Assembly (NCBI RefSeq): GCF_042660085.1 | Contig: NZ_JBHSTI010000008.1 | Span: 1,569,876-1,601,875, forward strand | DNA: 32,000 nt | Reading direction: 5' to 3' | Origin: Longivirga aurantiaca | Lineage (GTDB): Bacteria; Actinomycetota; Actinomycetes; S36-B12; CAIYMF01 | In this document: positions 9,972 through 19,592 of the stretch, piece after piece | Numbering within the stretch: the stretch's first letter is position 1 | Layout: every line of letters begins with the position of its first letter | Program-made: the position numbers and the translations under genes | Notes under the pieces: generated by a model | Told to the model about the DNA's origin: nothing | The model's input: only the letters and a program-made list of their open reading frames with translations | The model's database searches: none

Positions 9972-10382
9972 TCACCCGCGCTGCAGCAACGACAGAGGGA
10001 CCGGAGGGATGGTCTCGACCTTGCCGCGCAGGATCTTCACGAGCGAGAAGATCGACGTGTAGAGCCCCCAGGCGTACGCCGCGAGCACGACGGCCGAGAT
10101 GATCGTGCCGGGCAGGATCTTGCTGACCGACAGGTAGAAGCCGAGCACGAACAGCCCGGCGTACACGAGCTGCACCAGCAGCGAGAGCCGGAACCAGTGC
10201 AGGGCGAACGGCCGGTCGCGCAGGAACAGGCGGAGGAACAGCGGGCCGATCACCGGGGCCGGCCACATGCAGCCGGCGCAGGCGATGGCGAACGCCGTGT
10301 CGCCGCCGGTCGGGTGGGTCAGCCGGTCCTCCGGCGGTGCGTCCTCGGGCCAGGCCAGCGAGTCGTCGTGGTTGCTGCTCAC
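9972..10382 (-). CDS. Small integral membrane protein (136 aa), possibly DUF4870/Tic20-like
   Basis: The GTG start at 10382 overlaps the upstream stop (GTGA). The coding-like part runs VSSNHDDSLAWPEDAPP...GPLFLRLFLRDRPFALHWFRLSLLVQLVYAGLFVLGFYL... and has 3 predicted TM segments. The family assignment is tentative. Confidence 0.55.
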   Translation of the reverse strand: MSSNHDDSLAWPEDAPPEDRLTHPTGGDTAFAIACAGCMWPAPVIGPLFLRLFLRDRPFALHWFRLSLLVQLVYAGLFVLGFYLSVSKILPGTIISAVVLAAYAWGLYTSIFSLVKILRGKVETIPPVPLSLLQRG

Positions 10383-10825
10383 CCGCCCACCGTACGTGCT
10401 GCCCGGCTGCCGGCACTCGCGCAGGCCACCATCAGCGCCACGACGACGGGCACCATGAACAGCCCGACCGACAGGAGCGCGAGCACGGTGAACACTCCCA
10501 GCAGCGCCGTGAGCGCCCAGGCGCCGGCGCGCTGTCCCCTGCCCCCGACGCCTAGGAGGAGCCCCACGAGGAGCGTGACGGCGAGAGGGATGGCCAGGAC
10601 GAGCACCGCGGTCCAGCCGTTGACCTGCACCAGGGTCGCCGTCCCCGTGATCTCCTCCGTGCCGCCCGACCCGTCCACGGTGGCCGACGAGCTCGAGTAG
10701 CCGTAGAGCGGCAGAGTGAAGGCCGCGAGCACGAGCAGCACCGACCACACCAGCGCGAGCACGAGCGCGACCCGGGCGGTGAACGGGAGCGACCGCTCGC
10801 GCACGAGCGGCTGGGTGTCGGCCAT
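10379..10825 (-). CDS. Hypothetical integral membrane protein (148 aa, about 4 TM)
   Basis: ATG 10825 is preceded by GGAGGA 10 nt upstream. High GC3. Hydrophobic segments are separated by a Ser/Thr/Gly loop. It starts 39 nt after the kal-like stop. Confidence 0.55.
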   Translation of the reverse strand: MADTQPLVRERSLPFTARVALVLALVWSVLLVLAAFTLPLYGYSSSSATVDGSGGTEEITGTATLVQVNGWTAVLVLAIPLAVTLLVGLLLGVGGRGQRAGAWALTALLGVFTVLALLSVGLFMVPVVVALMVACASAGSRAARTVGG

Positions 10826-10864: not shown

Positions 10865-11260
10865 TCAGCCGGGGACGACGACCGTGCCGGTCGCCGTCGT
10901 CGCCACGATGGGCTCGTCGAGCACGGTGGCAGCCGACGCCGACACGGCCGGGGTCGCGCGGCAGACCACCCGCGCCTCGAACGCCACCGTGCGCGACCGG
11001 CGGCCGACACGCGTCACGGTGGCGGTGGCCTCGAGGACGTCGCCCCCCATGACCGGCGCATGGAACGTGACGACCTCGTAGGCGGCGAACAGGCCCTCGT
11101 CGCCGTCGGTGCGGATGCCCAGCTCGGTGGCGACGTCGCCGAACATGCCGAGCACGTAGGCGCCGTCGACGAGGTTGCCCCCGTAGTGCGCGTGCGAGTA
11201 GGGCACGTAGCGGCGGTGGGTCACGGAGACGCCGAGGCGCGGGTCGTCGGTCACGGTCAA
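10865..11260 (-). CDS. kal: Hotdog-fold protein resembling 3-aminobutyryl-CoA ammonia-lyase (Kal)
   Basis: About 131 aa. The motif [56 protein letters not shown] matches my recollection of the conserved Kal core ([10 protein letters not shown]...FGDVATEL...DGDEGLF). A TTG start at 11260 would overlap the kamE stop (TTGA); an alternative GTG lies at 11254. Confidence 0.6.
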
Positions 11261-12021
11261 CCAGCCTTCTTCCGGGTCGAGGGTGCGGGGACGAGCGACG
11301 ACACGAGGTACGAGGCGACCTCGCCCGGGGTCGTGCCCTTGCCGAAGATGCGGTCGACGCCGAGCTCGGCCGTCATCGACTCGTCGAAGCGCGGGCCGCC
11401 GACGACGAGCAGCGGCCGCTTGTCGCGCGGGAACGCCTCGCGGAAGGCGGCGCTCATCTCGCGGGTGTTGGTGAGGTGCGCGTCCCGCTGCGTGACCACC
11501 TGGGACACGAGCACGGCATCGGCCTTCGCGAGCCGCGACGCCTCGACGAGGTCGGGCACCGAGACCTGGGCGCCGAGGTTCACGACCGTGATCTCGGAGT
11601 AGTACTCGAGGCCCTTCTCGCCCGCGAAGCCCTTGATGTTGAGGATCGCGTCGATGCCCACGGTGTGCGCGTCGGTGCCGATGCACGCGCCCACCACGAC
11701 GAGCGGCCGGTGCAGTCCCTTCTTGATCGCGGCGTTGATCTCCTTGGGCGACAGCAACGGGTAGTCGCGCTCGACCACCTGCACCTCGCGCACGTCGACC
11801 AGGTGCTGCACCGCGCCGTACACGACGAAGAAGGTGAAGTCGGGCCCCATCGCCTTGGCGTGCACGACCATGGCCGGGTCCATGCCCATCTTCTTGGCGA
11901 GCAGCAGAGCGGCTCCCTCGGCACGCTTGTCGTGCGGCAGCGGCAGGGTGAAGGACATCTGCACCATGCCGTCGCCCGTGGTGTCGCCGTACGGACGCAC
12001 GATGTGCTTGCTCGCCCTCAT
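11257..12021 (-). CDS. kamE: Lysine 5,6-aminomutase beta subunit (B12/PLP-binding)
   Basis: 254 aa. [22 protein letters not shown]...FTFFVVYG...[27 protein letters not shown]...[12 protein letters not shown] is collinear with Clostridium sticklandii KamE, including the DxHxxG cobalamin motif (DAHTVG). The ATG overlaps the kamD stop (ATGA). Confidence 0.9.
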
Positions 12022-13613
12022 CGGGTCGCCCCCTCCTCGAGCAGGTCCGACGCCGGGTTCACGTAGTCGGGCGCCTTCCTCACCACGCCGTCGAGACCGC
12101 GTCCGGCGTCGGCCGGGCGCTTCATGAGCCCGAAGGTGCCGTCGGCGATCGCGTTGAGCAGCGTGTCGTCGACGATGTCGTCGAGGAGGTCGACCGCCTC
12201 GCCGAGCACCTGTCGGGCTCGTCGGGCGATGAAGCCGTCCGGCGCCGGGCGGAAGTCCTCGCGCAGGTTGCCGGCCGCGTTGAAGACGTAGCGCACGTTC
12301 TGGAGCGCGAGGTCGCGGTCGGACAGCCACGGGGTGACGACGGCCTCGGTCATCATGCCGACGAGCAGGATCCCCTGGCCGGTGAGCGCCCCGGCGAGGT
12401 TGAAGAAGCCGTCGAGCAGGTAGCCGCGGAAGACGTCGCCCGTCATGTGCTTGGTGGGCGGCATCCACTTGAGCGGGGCCTCGGGGAACAGCGCGCGGGC
12501 GAGCATCGCGTGCGCGAGCTCGAGCCGGAACGAGTCGGGGATCTCGGGCACGATCTCGAACGCGTGCCCGAGGCCGAGCTGCCAGTCCTGCAGCCCCGCC
12601 TCCTTGGCGAAGAACTCGTTGAGCAGCTGGCTCACGGTCACCGTGTGCGCGGCGTCCACGGCGTCGGCCGTCGTGAGGTAGTTGTCCTCGCCCGTGTTGA
12701 TGATGATGCCGGCGCGCGCGTGCACCTGGCGGCTGAACCTCTGGTCGACGAACGTGCGCACCGGGTTGATGTCGCGGAAGAGGATCCCGTACATCGAGTC
12801 GTTGAGCATCATGTCGAGCCGCTCGAGACCTGCGAGCGCTGCGATCTCGGGCATGCAGAGGCCGCTTGCGTAGTTCGTGAGGCGCACGTAGCGGCCGAGC
12901 TCCTTGCTCGTCTCGTCCAGCGCCGCGCGCATCAGCCGGAAGTTCGCCTGGGTCGCGTAGGTGCCGGCGTACCCCTCGCGGGTCGGGCCCTCGGGCACGT
13001 AGTCGAGCAACGACTGCCCGGTGGAACGGATCACCGCGATGACGTCCGCACCCTCGCGGGCCGCCGCCTGCGCCTGCGGCATGTCCTCGTAGATGTCGCC
13101 CGTGGCCACGATGAGGTAGATCCACGGCGAGGGCGGGTCTCCGTACGTGCCGATCATCCTGTCGCGGGCTGCGCGCTGGGCGTCGACCCGGCGGACGCCG
13201 GCCGCGATCTGCGCGCGGGCCTTGCGCGCGGCGGTGGAAGCGGCCTTCCCCTCCGGCAGGCGGAACTGCACCGAGCCGGCAGCGGCCTTCTGCGCCACCG
13301 TGAGCAGGTCGTCGCCGGTGCGGATCATGGCGTCCCACACGGGGATCGCGACACCGGTCTCGAGGCCGACCTGCTCGCGGACGACGTCGACGAGGCGGTT
13401 GACCCACGGGATGCCCTCGACGTCGGCGCCCTCGAGCCCTGCGAGGCGCAGGGTGGCACGCTCGACGGACACGGTGGTGTGCTGCTTGGCGAGCTTCACG
13501 ACCGGTGCGCCGGCCTTGCGCGCCAGCGACCGGGCCTTGCGGATGGTGACGGGATCGAGGTCGAGCATCCGCCTCGGGTCGTTGGCTGCTGTGACGTACG
13601 GACTGCGGCTCAC
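12018..13613 (-). CDS. kamD: Lysine 5,6-aminomutase alpha subunit
   Basis: 531 aa from GTG 13613. [20 protein letters not shown]...[68 protein letters not shown]...[14 protein letters not shown] is highly collinear with KamD of C. sticklandii. An alternative ATG (MLDLDP) lies 15 codons downstream. Confidence 0.9.
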
Positions 13614-15160
13614 GCCGCCACCTCCTCGAGTGCGCCGGCGTCGTGCAGCACCGAGCCGCGCAGCACTGTGCGCAGGCAGGTGGGCGTGAAGCCGGTGGTC
13701 AGGTCGGGCCAGCCGTGCTCGTCGGTCGTCGCGACGGCCCAGATCGCGTATGTCGCGGGCGCTCCGACGGCGATGACGCCGGACTCCCGGTCGCCGACCG
13801 AGTCGTGGCCCGCACGCGTGTGCGCGTCGAACGCGCTCGCGACATCGATCCGCTGCGACTCCGTGCGGTGCAGGACCGCGCCCCGCACACCGCCCCAGGG
13901 GTCGAACGGCGTGACCGGCGAGTCGCTGCCGAGCACGAGCGGCACCCCGGCGCGCTGCAGGTCGCCGTACGGGTTGAGGCCGGGGCCACGAGCGGGCCCG
14001 AGGCGGTCGACGTACATGCCGTCGGTGCCGCCCCAGAACGCGTCGAACGCGGGCTGCACCGAGGCGATGACCCCATGCTCGGCGAGGACGGCGACGGCCT
14101 CGCCGTCGCACATCTCGGCATGCTCGAGCCGGTGCCGCAGAGCTCGGACAGCGTCCCGCCCGACCGCTGCCGCGGCCGCCCGCAGGCCTGCCACGACGGC
14201 GTCCATCGCGCCGTCGCCGATCACGTGGAAGCCCGCCTGCACGCCCTCGCGCGAGCACTGCACCAGGTGGTCGGCGATGCTCGCCGCGTCGATGTAGAGG
14301 GCGCCGTGCGTGTGCTCGTCGTGGTACTCGGTGCGCAGGCAGGCCGTGCGCGAGCCGATCGCACCGTCGATGGACAGGTCGCCGGCCGCGCCGTGAGCGC
14401 CGAGTCGGCGCATGACGTCGAGGCCGCCCGTGGAGGCGAGCTGGCCCCAGTAGACGACGACCTCGGGGAGCGTCTCGGCGCGCGCGAGCGCGAGGAGCGA
14501 CGCGGCGTCGTCCTCCCCCGAGATGTCCGGCCCGGCCATCTCGTGCACGGCTGCGATCCCCTGCGCCGCAGCCGATCGCAGCGCGAGCCTCTGCACCTCG
14601 CTGGTCTGCGATCCGGTCACCGTGGCGAGCGCGGTGCCCCGGATCGCGTTGTGCGCCTCGCGGCGCACCCAGCCGTCCGCAGACCAGCCCTCGAGGCGCT
14701 CGGCCCCGGGGGTCGACGCCAGCATCGCGCCGCTGACCAGAGCCGAGTGGACATCGACGCGCGACAGGTAGACCAACGAGCCGTACGACGCGCGGTCGAG
14801 CTCGGACGCGGTCGGCAGCTCGCGGACGGGCCAGGTGGTCTCGTCCCAGCCGTGGCCGAGGATCGTGCGGCCGCGCAGCTGCTGCGTGCGGGCGGCGACG
14901 AGGTCGAGGAGGTCGGTCTTGGACCGCGCACCTGTGAGGTCGAGGCCGGCCAGCATGAGGCCGGTGTCGGTGGTGTGCACGTGACCGTCGACGAACGCAG
15001 GCATGAGGTGGGCGCCGTCGAGCTCGATGCGACGGTCGACCGCCGGCGCCGCGCCGCGCGAACCGATCCACGCTAGGACGCCGTCGCGGACGACCACGTC
15101 GAGGTCGCGAACCGCACCTTCGTGCAGCACCCGACCGCCCGCCAGGAGCGTGCTCGTCAC
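13610..15160 (-). CDS. Amidohydrolase-superfamily metal-dependent hydrolase (Amidohydro_3, YtcJ-like)
   Basis: 516 aa from GTG 15160. It has the N-terminal beta-sandwich plus the HxH motif (AFVDGHVHTTDTG), later GFHVIGDGA, RLEHAEM and LGSDSPV metal/catalytic motifs. Both ends overlap neighbours by GTGA. Confidence 0.8.
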   Translation of the reverse strand: MTSTLLAGGRVLHEGAVRDLDVVVRDGVLAWIGSRGAAPAVDRRIELDGAHLMPAFVDGHVHTTDTGLMLAGLDLTGARSKTDLLDLVAARTQQLRGRTILGHGWDETTWPVRELPTASELDRASYGSLVYLSRVDVHSALVSGAMLASTPGAERLEGWSADGWVRREAHNAIRGTALATVTGSQTSEVQRLALRSAAAQGIAAVHEMAGPDISGEDDAASLLALARAETLPEVVVYWGQLASTGGLDVMRRLGAHGAAGDLSIDGAIGSRTACLRTEYHDEHTHGALYIDAASIADHLVQCSREGVQAGFHVIGDGAMDAVVAGLRAAAAAVGRDAVRALRHRLEHAEMCDGEAVAVLAEHGVIASVQPAFDAFWGGTDGMYVDRLGPARGPGLNPYGDLQRAGVPLVLGSDSPVTPFDPWGGVRGAVLHRTESQRIDVASAFDAHTRAGHDSVGDRESGVIAVGAPATYAIWAVATTDEHGWPDLTTGFTPTCLRTVLRGSVLHDAGALEEVAA

Positions 15161-16233
15161 AGGTGACCCTCCGCCGCGAGCCGCTCGTTGAACAGGGTCT
15201 GGATCCCCGGCTCGGTCCGCAGCAGGTCGAACGCCATCTCGGCGTGACCCGGGGTGAAGCCGTTGCCGATCAGCATGGTCACGTCGGCGGCGAGGCCCTC
15301 CGCGCCGAGCGCCGCCGTGGCGAACGACGTCGCCATCGAGAAGAAGATGATCGTGCCGCCGTCGCCGCACGACAGGATCGCGCCGTGCTCGCAGCCGGGG
15401 ACGTCGACGCACACCACCACGACGTCGGCGACGTCGCCCAGCGCGTTCTCGATCGCGTCCGACAACCCGACCGGGTCGCGCGCGTCGGCGAGGGCCACGT
15501 TGTCGGCGAGGCCGAGCCGCTCGAGGGTCTCGGCCTCGCGCATCACCGGGACCACGCCGACCGTGCGGGCCGCACCGGCACGGCGGGCGGCAGCCAGGGA
15601 CAGCGAGCCGCTCTTGCCCGCTCCTCCGACGACGGCGACGGTCGGGGCCTTGCCGGCCTCGACGTAGCGGCGGACGACGCGGGCGGTGAGCGCCGGCGCG
15701 CCGCAGACGTCCATCACCATCATCGCCAGCCGGCCCGGCAGGTCCGTGGGCACCTTGGCGAGGATCGTGCGGTCGAACAGGATCGCGTGGCCGTCGCACG
15801 GGATCTGCTCGCCCGTGCCGTCCCAGTCGCGCAGGTCGTCGTCGATCTGCAGCGGGGTGAGCGTGAGCGACACGAGCGTGGTGATCTGGTCGCCGACGGA
15901 GATCTCGTGGTGGTGGCTCTGCGGCCCGACGGCCTCGACGACGCCGACGAGCATGCCGCCCGACCCGGTGACCGGGTTGTGCATCTTGCCGCGGGTCCGC
16001 ACGATCTCGAGCACCTCGGCGCGCACGGCGTCGCCGTCGCCGAAGTGCTTGTCGGACAGCTGCCGGAAGCTCGCGGCGTCGAGGTTGAGGCGCTGGACCC
16101 GGACGCGGATCTCCCCGGGGTGTAGGTCGGGGCTGGGGTCGAGGCGCCACGCAGCCTGCGGCAGCACGCCGCTCGGCTCGAGGACGCGGTGCAGACCGAC
16201 CGGGCTCACCGGATGACGGGGGCTCACGCGCAC
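15157..16233 (-). CDS. kdd: L-erythro-3,5-diaminohexanoate dehydrogenase
   Basis: About 358 aa. GLHRVLEPSGVLPQAAWRLD...IRVRVQRLNLDAASFRQL...KMHNPVTGSGGMLVG...VVGGAGKSG matches the Kdd N-terminal signature (HRVIEPKGSLPQ...) and the Rossmann motif. GTG starts at 16233 or 16227 are preceded by GGGAAGGA. The longer ORF reaching 16284 is Arg-rich. Confidence 0.85.
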   Translation of the reverse strand: MRVSPRHPVSPVGLHRVLEPSGVLPQAAWRLDPSPDLHPGEIRVRVQRLNLDAASFRQLSDKHFGDGDAVRAEVLEIVRTRGKMHNPVTGSGGMLVGVVEAVGPQSHHHEISVGDQITTLVSLTLTPLQIDDDLRDWDGTGEQIPCDGHAILFDRTILAKVPTDLPGRLAMMVMDVCGAPALTARVVRRYVEAGKAPTVAVVGGAGKSGSLSLAAARRAGAARTVGVVPVMREAETLERLGLADNVALADARDPVGLSDAIENALGDVADVVVVCVDVPGCEHGAILSCGDGGTIIFFSMATSFATAALGAEGLAADVTMLIGNGFTPGHAEMAFDLLRTEPGIQTLFNERLAAEGHL

Positions 16234-16450
16234 TGATCCTTCCCTGCGGCGACGCCGCTGTCTCGGGACGCGCCAGGAAGGCACTCCATGCCGGAAGTAA
16301 CGGGACGATCTCGCCCGTGATCACACTACGGGCGCAAATCCTTGCGTCGGATGATGCCAGATCCGGACGATGTCCCGTATCCTCGCGCCAGGATCACGCG
16401 CGTGTCCGGTCGACGGCCGGCCGCGCGTTCGCGACGCACCGGAGGATGAC

Positions 16451-17893
16451 GTGACCGAGACCCTCGCCAACGCCGTGGCCGCGGCGGACGGGCTCGCCCT
16501 GCCGCAGCCCTACGTCTACCGCCACAACCCTCTGGTCGAGCCCGACTGGCGCCGCTTCCCGGGATGGAAGGACGTCACGGACGACGAGTGGCGCTCCGCC
16601 CAGTGGCAGCGCAGCCACTGCGTGAAGAACGTCGCCCAGCTGCGCGGGGTGGTCGGCGACCTGCTCGACGAGCGGTTCTACGCCGACCTCGAGGCCGACA
16701 TCACCGATGCCGCCACGATGTCGATGCTCGTCCCGCCGCAGATGGTCAACACCATGGCGCCCACCGTGTCGCCCGCCGGCCCCGGCTCGCTCACCGAGGC
16801 GTGGTACGCCGACCCGGTGCGCCGCTACATGCTGCCGGTGCTGAGCGATCGGCGTACCGACTGGACGTCGCACCCGCACGCCACACGTGACTCGCTGCAC
16901 GAGCACGAGATGTGGGCGGTCGAGGGCCTCACGCACCGCTACCCCACCAAGGTGCTCGCCGAGCTGCTCACCACGTGCCCGCAGTACTGCGGCCACTGCA
17001 CGCGCATGGACCTCGTGGGCAACTCCACCCCGCAGGTCGAGAAGCTGAAGTTCGTCGCCAAGCCCGACACCCGCCTCGCCGACATGCTCGACTACCTGCG
17101 CCGCTCCCCCGGCGTGCGCGACGTGGTCGTCTCCGGCGGCGACGTCGCCAACATGCCGTGGGCGCGTCTCGAGCAGTTCGTCTCCGCCTTGCTCGAGATC
17201 GAGAACGTGCGCGACATCCGCCTGGCGTCCAAGGCGTTCGCGGCGCTTCCGCAGCACTGGCTGCAGGACGACGTCCGCGCCGGCATGGAGCGCGTGGCGA
17301 CGACCGCACGCAAGCGCGGGGTGGGCCTCGCCATCCACACGCACGTGAACTCCGCCAACACCGTCACGCCGCTCGTCGCCGAGGCGACGCGCGCGATGCT
17401 CGAGGTCGGCGTCCGCGACGTCCGCAACCAGGGCGTGCTCATGCGCGGGGTCAACGACTCCGTCGACAAGCTGCTCGACCTCTGCTTCGGCCTGCTCGAT
17501 GGCGCCGGGATCATGCCGTACTACTTCTACATGTGCGACATGATCCCCAACGCCGAGCACTGGCGGCTCGCGGTGTGGGAGGCACAGGCGCTGCAGCACG
17601 GGATCATGGGCTACCTGCCCGGGTTCGCGACGCCGCGCATCGTCTGCGACGTGCCGTACGTCGGCAAGCGCTGGGTCCACCAGGTGCACGAGTACGACCG
17701 CGAGCGCGGGATCACCTACTGGACGAAGAACTACCGCACCGGCATCGAAACCGCCGACTCGGCAGCCCTCGAGCGGACGTACGAGTACTACGACCCGATC
17801 CACACGCTGCCCGAGGCCGGCCAGGACTGGTGGCGCCTGCACGCGGCCGACTCGGTCGCCGCTGCCGACGCCAGCCGCGAGGTCCACTCCTGA
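16451..17893 (+). CDS. kamA: Lysine 2,3-aminomutase (radical SAM, KamA family)
   Basis: 480 aa from GTG 16451 (GGAGGA 4 nt upstream). The CPQYCGHC radical-SAM cluster motif is at 16976-16999, followed by VVSGGD, PYYFYMCD and VCDVPYVGK. Both acidic residues corresponding to the lysine epsilon-amino binding Asp residues of Clostridium LAM are retained (17537-17539 and 17648-17650). Confidence 0.9.
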   Translation: MTETLANAVAAADGLALPQPYVYRHNPLVEPDWRRFPGWKDVTDDEWRSAQWQRSHCVKNVAQLRGVVGDLLDERFYADLEADITDAATMSMLVPPQMVNTMAPTVSPAGPGSLTEAWYADPVRRYMLPVLSDRRTDWTSHPHATRDSLHEHEMWAVEGLTHRYPTKVLAELLTTCPQYCGHCTRMDLVGNSTPQVEKLKFVAKPDTRLADMLDYLRRSPGVRDVVVSGGDVANMPWARLEQFVSALLEIENVRDIRLASKAFAALPQHWLQDDVRAGMERVATTARKRGVGLAIHTHVNSANTVTPLVAEATRAMLEVGVRDVRNQGVLMRGVNDSVDKLLDLCFGLLDGAGIMPYYFYMCDMIPNAEHWRLAVWEAQALQHGIMGYLPGFATPRIVCDVPYVGKRWVHQVHEYDRERGITYWTKNYRTGIETADSAALERTYEYYDPIHTLPEAGQDWWRLHAADSVAAADASREVHS

Positions 17894-18970: not shown

Positions 18971-19024
18971 CCGACTTGGTGGTGGAATCTCGCGCTCTGC
19001 TGCGACTTCCCACTACCAAATCAG
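18971..19024. repeat. Hairpin repeat copy B, in the same orientation as copy A
   Basis: ccgacttggtggtgg-aatctcgcgctctgctgcgacttc-ccactaccaaatcag. The core stem is 10 bp including one G-T (G-U) pair, with a 24-nt loop. Its minus-strand 5' end contains the lrp stop codon TGA. Confidence 0.75.
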
Positions 19025-19461
19025 AGGGCGGGCGGGCGGTTCTCGTACGGCGTGGAGAGTACGACGCTCGTGCGCGTGGAGACGTTGGCCTTGGCGCGGA
19101 TCTCAGCCAGCAGCAGCTCGAGGTCGGCGGGGCTGCCCACCCGCACCTTGAGCACGTACGACTCGTCACCCGCGACCGAGTGGCAGGCCTCGATGGCGCT
19201 GACAGCCTCGAGCCGATGCGGCGCGTCGTCCGGCGCAGCGGGGTCGATGGGCTTGATCGAGATGAGGGCGGTGAGCGGGAGCCCGAGCTGGTCGTGGTCG
19301 ACCACGATCGTGTAGCCCTTGATGACCCCGCGCTGCTCGAGGCGGCGAACCCGCTGGTGGACGGCGGACGTCGAGAGCCCCGTGGCCTTGCCGAGGTCGG
19401 TGTACGACATGCGGCCGTCGCCCGCCAGCAGGCGCACGATCGCCTGGTCGATCTCCTCCAC
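19021..19461 (-). CDS. Lrp/AsnC family transcriptional regulator
   Basis: VEEIDQAIVRLLAGDGRMSYTDLGKATGLSTSAVHQRVRRLEQRGVIKGYTIVVD... gives the HTH_AsnC domain, followed by a RAM/AsnC_trans_reg C-terminal domain. I prefer the GTG start at 19461; the ORF extends to ATG 19512. Confidence 0.8.
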   Translation of the reverse strand: MEEIDQAIVRLLAGDGRMSYTDLGKATGLSTSAVHQRVRRLEQRGVIKGYTIVVDHDQLGLPLTALISIKPIDPAAPDDAPHRLEAVSAIEACHSVAGDESYVLKVRVGSPADLELLLAEIRAKANVSTRTSVVLSTPYENRPPAL

Positions 19462-19592
19462 GAACGCACAGCCCTTCGTCCCGACCGGCCCGCACGACCG
19501 GATCTCCGGCACAACCTACCGAGAGGCGCACGGATGTCCCGCCCGATACCCGGATCGTGACCACTACCGGCGGGTAGCGAGAGGGGCCCGCC

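Follow-up and report, generated by a model that had tools for sequence, protein, structure and literature searches.

Why should an amidohydrolase be encoded within an operon for lysine breakdown? The question is raised by a 32,000-nucleotide stretch of Longivirga aurantiaca DNA (contig NZ_JBHSTI010000008.1, positions 1,569,876 to 1,601,875), here called the window, which is actinobacterial DNA of 72% G+C whose nearest proteins come from metagenome-assembled genomes of 'Candidatus Nanopelagicales'. On its minus strand, at 13610..15160, a gene for a YtcJ-like Amidohydro_3 protein of 516 amino acids (aa) lies between kdd and kamD. The described lysine fermentation pathway contains no amidohydrolase, as an earlier note on this DNA had pointed out and as is still true. 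The same note had reported a 516-aa amidohydrolase with intact metal ligands and GTGA overlaps with both kdd and kamD, all of which we confirmed. It had called the gene an integral operon member and proposed either a front-end deacylase that liberates lysine or beta-lysine, for example from N-epsilon-acetyl-beta-lysine, or a new step that replaces Kce.

Orthology to Streptomyces epsilon-lysine acylases

The epsilon-lysine acylases SmELA, ScELA, SamELA, and SgELA (EC 3.5.1.17), from Streptomyces mobaraensis, S. coelicolor, S. ambofaciens, and S. griseus, are YtcJ-like amidohydrolases (Haeger et al. 2023, PMC10699109). SgELA is specific for N-epsilon-acetyl-L-lysine (11 U/mg), and SmELA and ScELA both hydrolyse and synthesise N-epsilon-acyl-L-lysines (PMC10699109, PMC11511702). 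Using the SgELA sequence from the supplement of PMC10699109, we obtained a full-length alignment with the window protein at 48% identity (residues 3-506 of the window protein against 15-543 of SgELA; E value of 8e-143). When the source genome was searched with SgELA, this protein was the top match (E value of 3e-135), and the next paralog scored 9e-31. SgELA is 86% and 79% identical to the best matches of the window protein in two Streptomyces-like genomes, where the matching genes occupy the same lrp-X-ppm1 block (X denotes the acylase gene), and it is 52 to 60% identical to copies embedded in the kam operons of other families.

The active site gave the same picture. Pfam assigned the protein to Amidohydro_3 (PF07969; 229 bits; E value of 1.8e-67), and the metal ligands H60/H62, H312, H347, and D413 are all present and are invariant or nearly so among 32 orthologs. 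SgELA residues H76, H78, H330, H365, and D431 align to H60, H62, H312, H347, and D413 with the same spacing. At the position of the carboxylated lysine of other M38 enzymes the protein has Asp261, within a GDL(S/F)xDG motif; the missing carboxylated lysine is the hallmark that sets epsilon-lysine acylases apart from other M38 enzymes (2024 review, PMC11511702). No alignment columns separated kam-embedded from kam-less orthologs, and in a tree the two kinds of copy interleave, following taxon. We conclude from synteny and reciprocal best matches that the protein is orthologous to the Streptomyces epsilon-lysine acylases, and we refer to it below as the acylase. In its general form, the proposal of a front-end, lysine-liberating deacylase was thus supported by orthology to characterised N-epsilon-acyl-L-lysine deacylases; the known substrates of these enzymes are alpha-lysine derivatives.

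An AlphaFold2 model of the acylase had a predicted local distance difference test (pLDDT) score of 95.9. The nearest solved structures by sequence, Pyrococcus 3ICJ and 3IGH (E value of 2e-21), were also the top Foldseek matches of the model (E value of 4e-30; template modelling [TM] score of 0.69-0.75), in agreement with the statement that epsilon-lysine acylases have no published structure. The Protein Data Bank (PDB) sequence search and Foldseek gave no substrate clue: apart from distant triazine, imidazolone, and peptidase enzymes, the matches were all to Pyrococcus hydrolases that are uncharacterised. NCBIfam yielded only weak, sub-threshold matches to dihydroorotase, hydantoinase, and similar N-terminal motifs, which were uninformative. 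SgELA H177, the oxyanion-hole histidine according to the SgELA paper, aligns with Ser160 of the acylase. His138 and His170 are invariant in a 66-sequence alignment and are better candidates for the oxyanion hole than residue 160.

Kce is encoded elsewhere in the genome

The idea that the acylase cleaves 3-keto-5-aminohexanoate in place of Kce fits an operon without kce, and both enzyme types are metal-dependent TIM (triosephosphate isomerase) barrels. However, the source genome carries one BKACE gene, on another contig (G000:C2:283132-283932; L001:1480-2334), which among NCBIfam families scored best against the 3-keto-5-aminohexanoate cleavage enzyme (265 bits versus a curated cut-off of 382). 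We surveyed 301 genomes of the class that were at least 90% complete, with co-occurrence figures that ignore phylogeny. Kce and KamD were each present in 101 genomes, with both in 98, KamD only in 3, Kce only in 3, and neither in 197. Moreover, kam operons without the amidohydrolase retain Kal and Kce. Kce is therefore a true pathway partner, unlinked but co-inherited. Because the unlinked Kce co-occurs with KamD in 98 of the 101 genomes, the acylase is not a Kce replacement; we give that reading of the earlier note practically no credence. The actinobacterial Kce clade is probably under-annotated, as its score below the cut-off illustrates.

The acylase gene and the kam pathway are separable

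The same survey was used to ask how closely the acylase follows the pathway. Both the acylase and KamD were found in 71 genomes, KamD only in 30, the acylase only in 89, and neither in 111, so that the acylase is present in 70% of KamD-positive versus 44.5% of KamD-negative genomes. The co-occurrence check suggested earlier thus showed enrichment with KamD, at a level far looser than that of Kce. Where both genes are present, they are adjacent or at most about 8 kb apart, and in the 30 KamD-positive genomes without the acylase at the locus, kdd adjoins kamD directly and no copy was found elsewhere either.

Losses reach into the same genus, where KamD is present in 24 of 24 genomes and the acylase in only 15. 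In G002, G003, G013, G019, G022, and G023, kdd abuts kamD with no acylase between them, and the other kam genes of the acylase-less genomes are intact (75-91% identity). Operons of close relatives without the acylase, which the earlier note had named as evidence against its view, therefore do exist. We also searched genome contigs with a KamD alignment, which returned only actinobacterial-type loci, 70 of them named and carrying both kdd and kamD. The acylase lies between the two genes in 41 of these 70 (including Kribbella, Micromonospora, Catellatospora, Actinoplanes, Rhodococcus rhodnii, and Lentzea) and is absent from 29 (including Nocardioides baculatus, N. ferulae, N. glacieisoli, and Terrabacter). 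At two loci, L009:5742-6830 (genome G032) and L045:10759-12362 (G140), decayed acylase remnants persist between intact kdd and kamD; one has lost an internal segment in frame and has H312, H347, and D413 replaced, and the other is frameshifted and has lost HxH.

Separation also runs in the other direction. Order-level relatives without kam genes keep the acylase (37-52% identity) in a pepM24-(ACAD)-(lrp)-X-lnt-ppm1 arrangement; Streptomyces-like, mycobacteria-like, and other kam-less families retain lrp-X-(lnt)-ppm1; and in the 89 acylase-only genomes the gene always lies in the lrp-X-lnt-ppm1 block. Several families have a kam operon at this same locus with the acylase absent. The kdd-acylase-kamD order recurs, with the hallmark motifs present, in family f54, which belongs to another class of the phylum, and in family f86. 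The arrangement is thus ancient, extending over at least two classes, and gene and pathway are separable both ways. An ancestral kamA/kdd-X-kamDE-kal cluster followed by repeated losses would be a more parsimonious history than insertion of kam genes around a resident gene.

What had been called an integral operon member is one in its expression architecture, given that it overlaps both of its neighbours and that the kdd-X-kamD order recurs in two classes. It is not an obligatory one: the acylase is absent from 30 of the 101 KamD-positive genomes and stands without KamD in 89. An obligate member would co-occur with KamD as true pathway genes do and would be present in the operons of close relatives; the acylase counts (71/30/89/111) differ widely from those of Kce (98/3/3/197), and the gene is absent from same-genus genomes and from 29 of the 70 named loci.

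The acylase could then be a historical passenger, a kam-independent housekeeping hydrolase of the ancient lrp-X-lnt-ppm1 block whose product is irrelevant to the pathway. KamD is absent from 89 of the 160 acylase-bearing genomes, including 20 of 20 in the Streptomyces-like family f31 and the mycobacteria-like ones, and the acylase always adjoins lnt/ppm1. It is missing from 30 of 101 kam operons, with in-situ pseudogene remnants in two, by contrast with the true partner Kce, and within the genus no other protein of the locus is less well conserved (60-64% identity versus 81-90% for KamD). Yet a chance passenger would be unlikely to make the exact entry substrate of the pathway, the overlapped position within the operon has been held across two classes despite clear clean deletions elsewhere, and retention of the acylase is higher in kam-bearing genomes. 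We regard a passenger as unlikely, though as the main rival explanation.

The position of the gene between kdd and kamD might instead point to a hydrolase internal to the pathway. In salvage or repair, it would act on N-epsilon-acetyl-beta-lysine or on a by-product (a lactam or cyclised form) derived from 3,5-diaminohexanoate or 3-keto-5-aminohexanoate. An epsilon-acyl-beta-lysine departs from the known substrates at the distal amino group only, and cyclic amidases belong to the amidohydrolase superfamily. Such substrates need Kam enzymes, however, and an acylase with intact ligands is kept in the 89 kam-less genomes; kam-specific residues were not found in the alignment, and the characterised orthologs use alpha-lysine derivatives. 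A function of this kind seems to us very improbable.

A proposed accessory entry to lysine breakdown

We propose, at a probability of roughly 0.6, that the gene encodes a metal-dependent N-epsilon-acyl-L-lysine amidohydrolase that is co-translated with kdd, kamDE, and kal and would deliver its product to KamA. The enzyme would hydrolyse the epsilon-amide of acylated lysines, releasing a carboxylate and free L-lysine; its substrates could include fatty-acyl lysines, N-epsilon-acetyl-L-lysine set free when acetylated proteins are degraded, and possibly isopeptides. The freed L-lysine would be converted to beta-lysine by the divergently encoded KamA, and beta-lysine would then pass through KamDE, Kdd, Kce (acting in trans), and Kal to yield crotonyl-coenzyme A (crotonyl-CoA), acetoacetate, and ammonia. 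As an accessory front end, the acylase would broaden the range of lysine sources; it would be dispensable when free lysine is available and, on its own, useful for lysine salvage. We infer both the substrate of this protein and the feeding of KamA in vivo; the gene, its overlaps and ligands, the orthology, and the distribution among genomes are observed.

The biochemical fit is that the characterised orthologs release L-lysine, on which KamA acts. An entry step would explain why the acylase keeps its place within the operon, why it is translationally coupled, and why it is retained more often with kam (70% versus 44.5%). Either part could survive alone, because the acylase would salvage lysine without Kam and Kam would run on free lysine.

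Several observations weigh against this proposal. Of the kam operons, 30% have lost the acylase or carry it in decayed form, and 89 genomes keep it without kam, so that its co-location could be inherited history; the odds ratio of acylase-KamD co-occurrence is ~3, uncorrected for phylogeny. No acyl-lysine transporter was identified near the locus. Finally, the acylase is 48% identical to the characterised enzymes, which share >75% identity among themselves, and its acyl or amino-acid specificity could therefore differ from theirs.

A bolder version of the accessory entry step would make the actinobacterial Kam operon primarily a route for catabolism of N-epsilon-acylated lysine, with the acylase as its dedicated entry enzyme. 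Acyl-lysines would in that case come from protein turnover (as acetyl-lysine), acyl-lysine lipids or isopeptides, or acetyl-beta-lysine. We hold this extension only tentatively and think it somewhat less probable than its opposite. If true, it would give EC 3.5.1.17 its first bacterial physiological pathway context, as far as we found, and would amount to an undescribed pathway of acyl-lysine utilisation with Kce in trans.

Architecture of the locus

The acylase is read from a minus-strand frame of 516 codons, from GTG at 15160-15158 to TGA at 13612-13610. The frame remains open upstream as far as 16324; the GTG at 15160 agrees with the N termini of 31 orthologs, with an offset of 0 in most. 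All of the following genes lie on the minus strand unless noted. A GTGA at 15157..15160 combines the acylase start with the stop of kdd (L-erythro-3,5-diaminohexanoate dehydrogenase; 15157..16284), and a second GTGA at 13610..13613 combines the acylase stop with the start of kamD (lysine 5,6-aminomutase alpha subunit; 12018..13613). Purine-rich, Shine-Dalgarno-like sequences (GGAGGG and GAGGAGG) lie 7-8 nucleotides 5′ of the acylase and kamD starts. An ATGA overlap joins the kamD stop to kamE (B12-binding beta subunit of lysine 5,6-aminomutase; 11257..12021), and a TTGA overlap joins the kamE stop to kal (3-aminobutyryl-CoA ammonia lyase, of the hotdog fold; 10865..11260). Four-nucleotide start/stop overlaps are frequent in high-GC operons, and the GTGA overlaps thus represent translational coupling that is not unusual in itself. 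A promoter and terminator scan of the window, at 72% G+C, was uninformative.

Identities of the four neighbours were assigned by passing NCBIfam equivalog cut-offs: Kdd matched NF052381 (258 bits versus 200), KamD NF052384 (707 versus 600), KamE NF052385 (347 versus 280), and Kal NF052388 (188 versus 160). The true start of kdd is probably near 16233. Divergent from kdd, on the plus strand at 16370..17893, lies a gene for a KamA-type radical S-adenosylmethionine (SAM) lysine 2,3-aminomutase of the long actinobacterial form. Its product contains a CPQYCGHC motif, and its top NCBIfam matches are the KamA family and lysine 2,3-aminomutase, both under cut-off; for the latter the 507-aa protein scored 149 bits versus 525. 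The KamA-type gene adjoins kdd in every operon of the class Actinomycetes that we examined. An Lrp/AsnC regulator gene (19021..19515, minus strand) is a neighbour that the acylase keeps with or without kam genes. Two small membrane open reading frames 3′ of kal (9972-10825) occur only in the nearest relatives (L010 and L096) and are outside the conserved cluster.

Some loci depart from this layout. In L053-L063 of family f54, kamA runs in the same direction as kdd-acylase-kamDE-kal and it is lrp that diverges, whereas kamA is divergent in Actinomycetes. In L096 (genome G018), the closest relative, KamD is 97% identical to that of the window and the acylase and kamD each align in pieces, which suggests frame disruptions in two adjacent genes, from either assembly errors or early decay. 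An insert of 3.6-8 kb divides the operon between the acylase and kamD in L029, L031, and L120 (f22 type); the inserts, considered for a link to lysine, consist instead of opposite-strand genes whose products are a NUDIX protein, a large secreted repeat protein, an acyltransferase of the PlsC type, and, at one of the loci, a sigma factor. L120 (JAJAYQ010000133.1) is labelled 'Spirochaetaceae bacterium' and carries an actinobacterial-type operon with a KamD that is 78% identical to that of the window; it is probably a contaminant introduced in binning. Neighbours of the kam-less acylase genes were likewise rejected as lysine-related, being an ATP-binding cassette (ABC) transporter, a molybdenum hydroxylase, cobN, and PNPOx-like and FxsA proteins.

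What is known and what is new

The kind of enzyme is already known; its embedding in a kam operon appears to be undescribed, as we found no description of it. Literature on MSMEG_3861/SCO142x, or on diaminohexanoate dehydrogenase together with amidohydrolase, gave no link of the gene to kam, and we found no description in the literature of a physiological role for the Streptomyces epsilon-lysine acylases. These enzymes have so far been investigated almost exclusively as biocatalysts for the production of lauroyl-lysine surfactants; in Escherichia coli, they form inclusion bodies. That an ortholog is translationally coupled to lysine-degrading genes in many actinobacterial families, and in a second class as well, suggests a testable role, namely, release of lysine for catabolism, and the textbook scheme of lysine fermentation would gain an optional entry step. 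Two misreadings are also corrected. The actinobacterial operon is not short of a Kce step, Kce being unlinked and co-inherited, and tight start/stop overlaps are no proof of indispensability. A function is suggested, finally, for a widespread uncharacterised actinobacterial gene, including its probable mycobacterial ortholog, Rv2052c.

Comparison with known systems

The mycobacterial case rests on gene order. A mycobacteria-like genome has the arrangement cobN ... fxsA-X-lnt-ppm1, with X 42% identical to the acylase, and Rv2052c of Mycobacterium tuberculosis adjoins ppm1 (Rv2051c). By synteny, Rv2052c is a probable ortholog of the acylase, which suggests that this protein, too, belongs to the epsilon-lysine acylase family of amidohydrolases. 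The only annotation that we found for Rv2052c in the literature is based on a model built on 3IGH and reads 'putative endodeoxyribonuclease' (PMC8562490); acylase orthology makes that label doubtful. 3ICJ and 3IGH are themselves uncharacterised metal-dependent hydrolases and, as the closest solved structures, are yet only 22-24% identical to the acylase. Where the acylase has Asp261, 3ICJ has a lysine, in VKLFVDG, which we take to be the carboxylated, metal-bridging residue.

With the Streptomyces epsilon-lysine acylases, the window protein shares its Pfam family, length class, ligands and their spacing, the Asp in place of the carboxylated lysine, and the lrp-X-lnt/ppm1 block. Unlike theirs, its gene is overlapped at start and stop inside a kam operon; in Streptomyces-like family f31, KamD was found in 0 of 20 genomes sampled. 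In Fusobacterium and Clostridium, the classical operon for lysine fermentation comprises kamA, kamDE, kdd, kce, and kal; it shares with this locus the KamA-type protein, KamDE, Kdd, and Kal. The actinobacterial operon differs from it in that kce is unlinked, the acylase gene stands between kdd and kamD, and the hosts are high-GC Actinomycetota.

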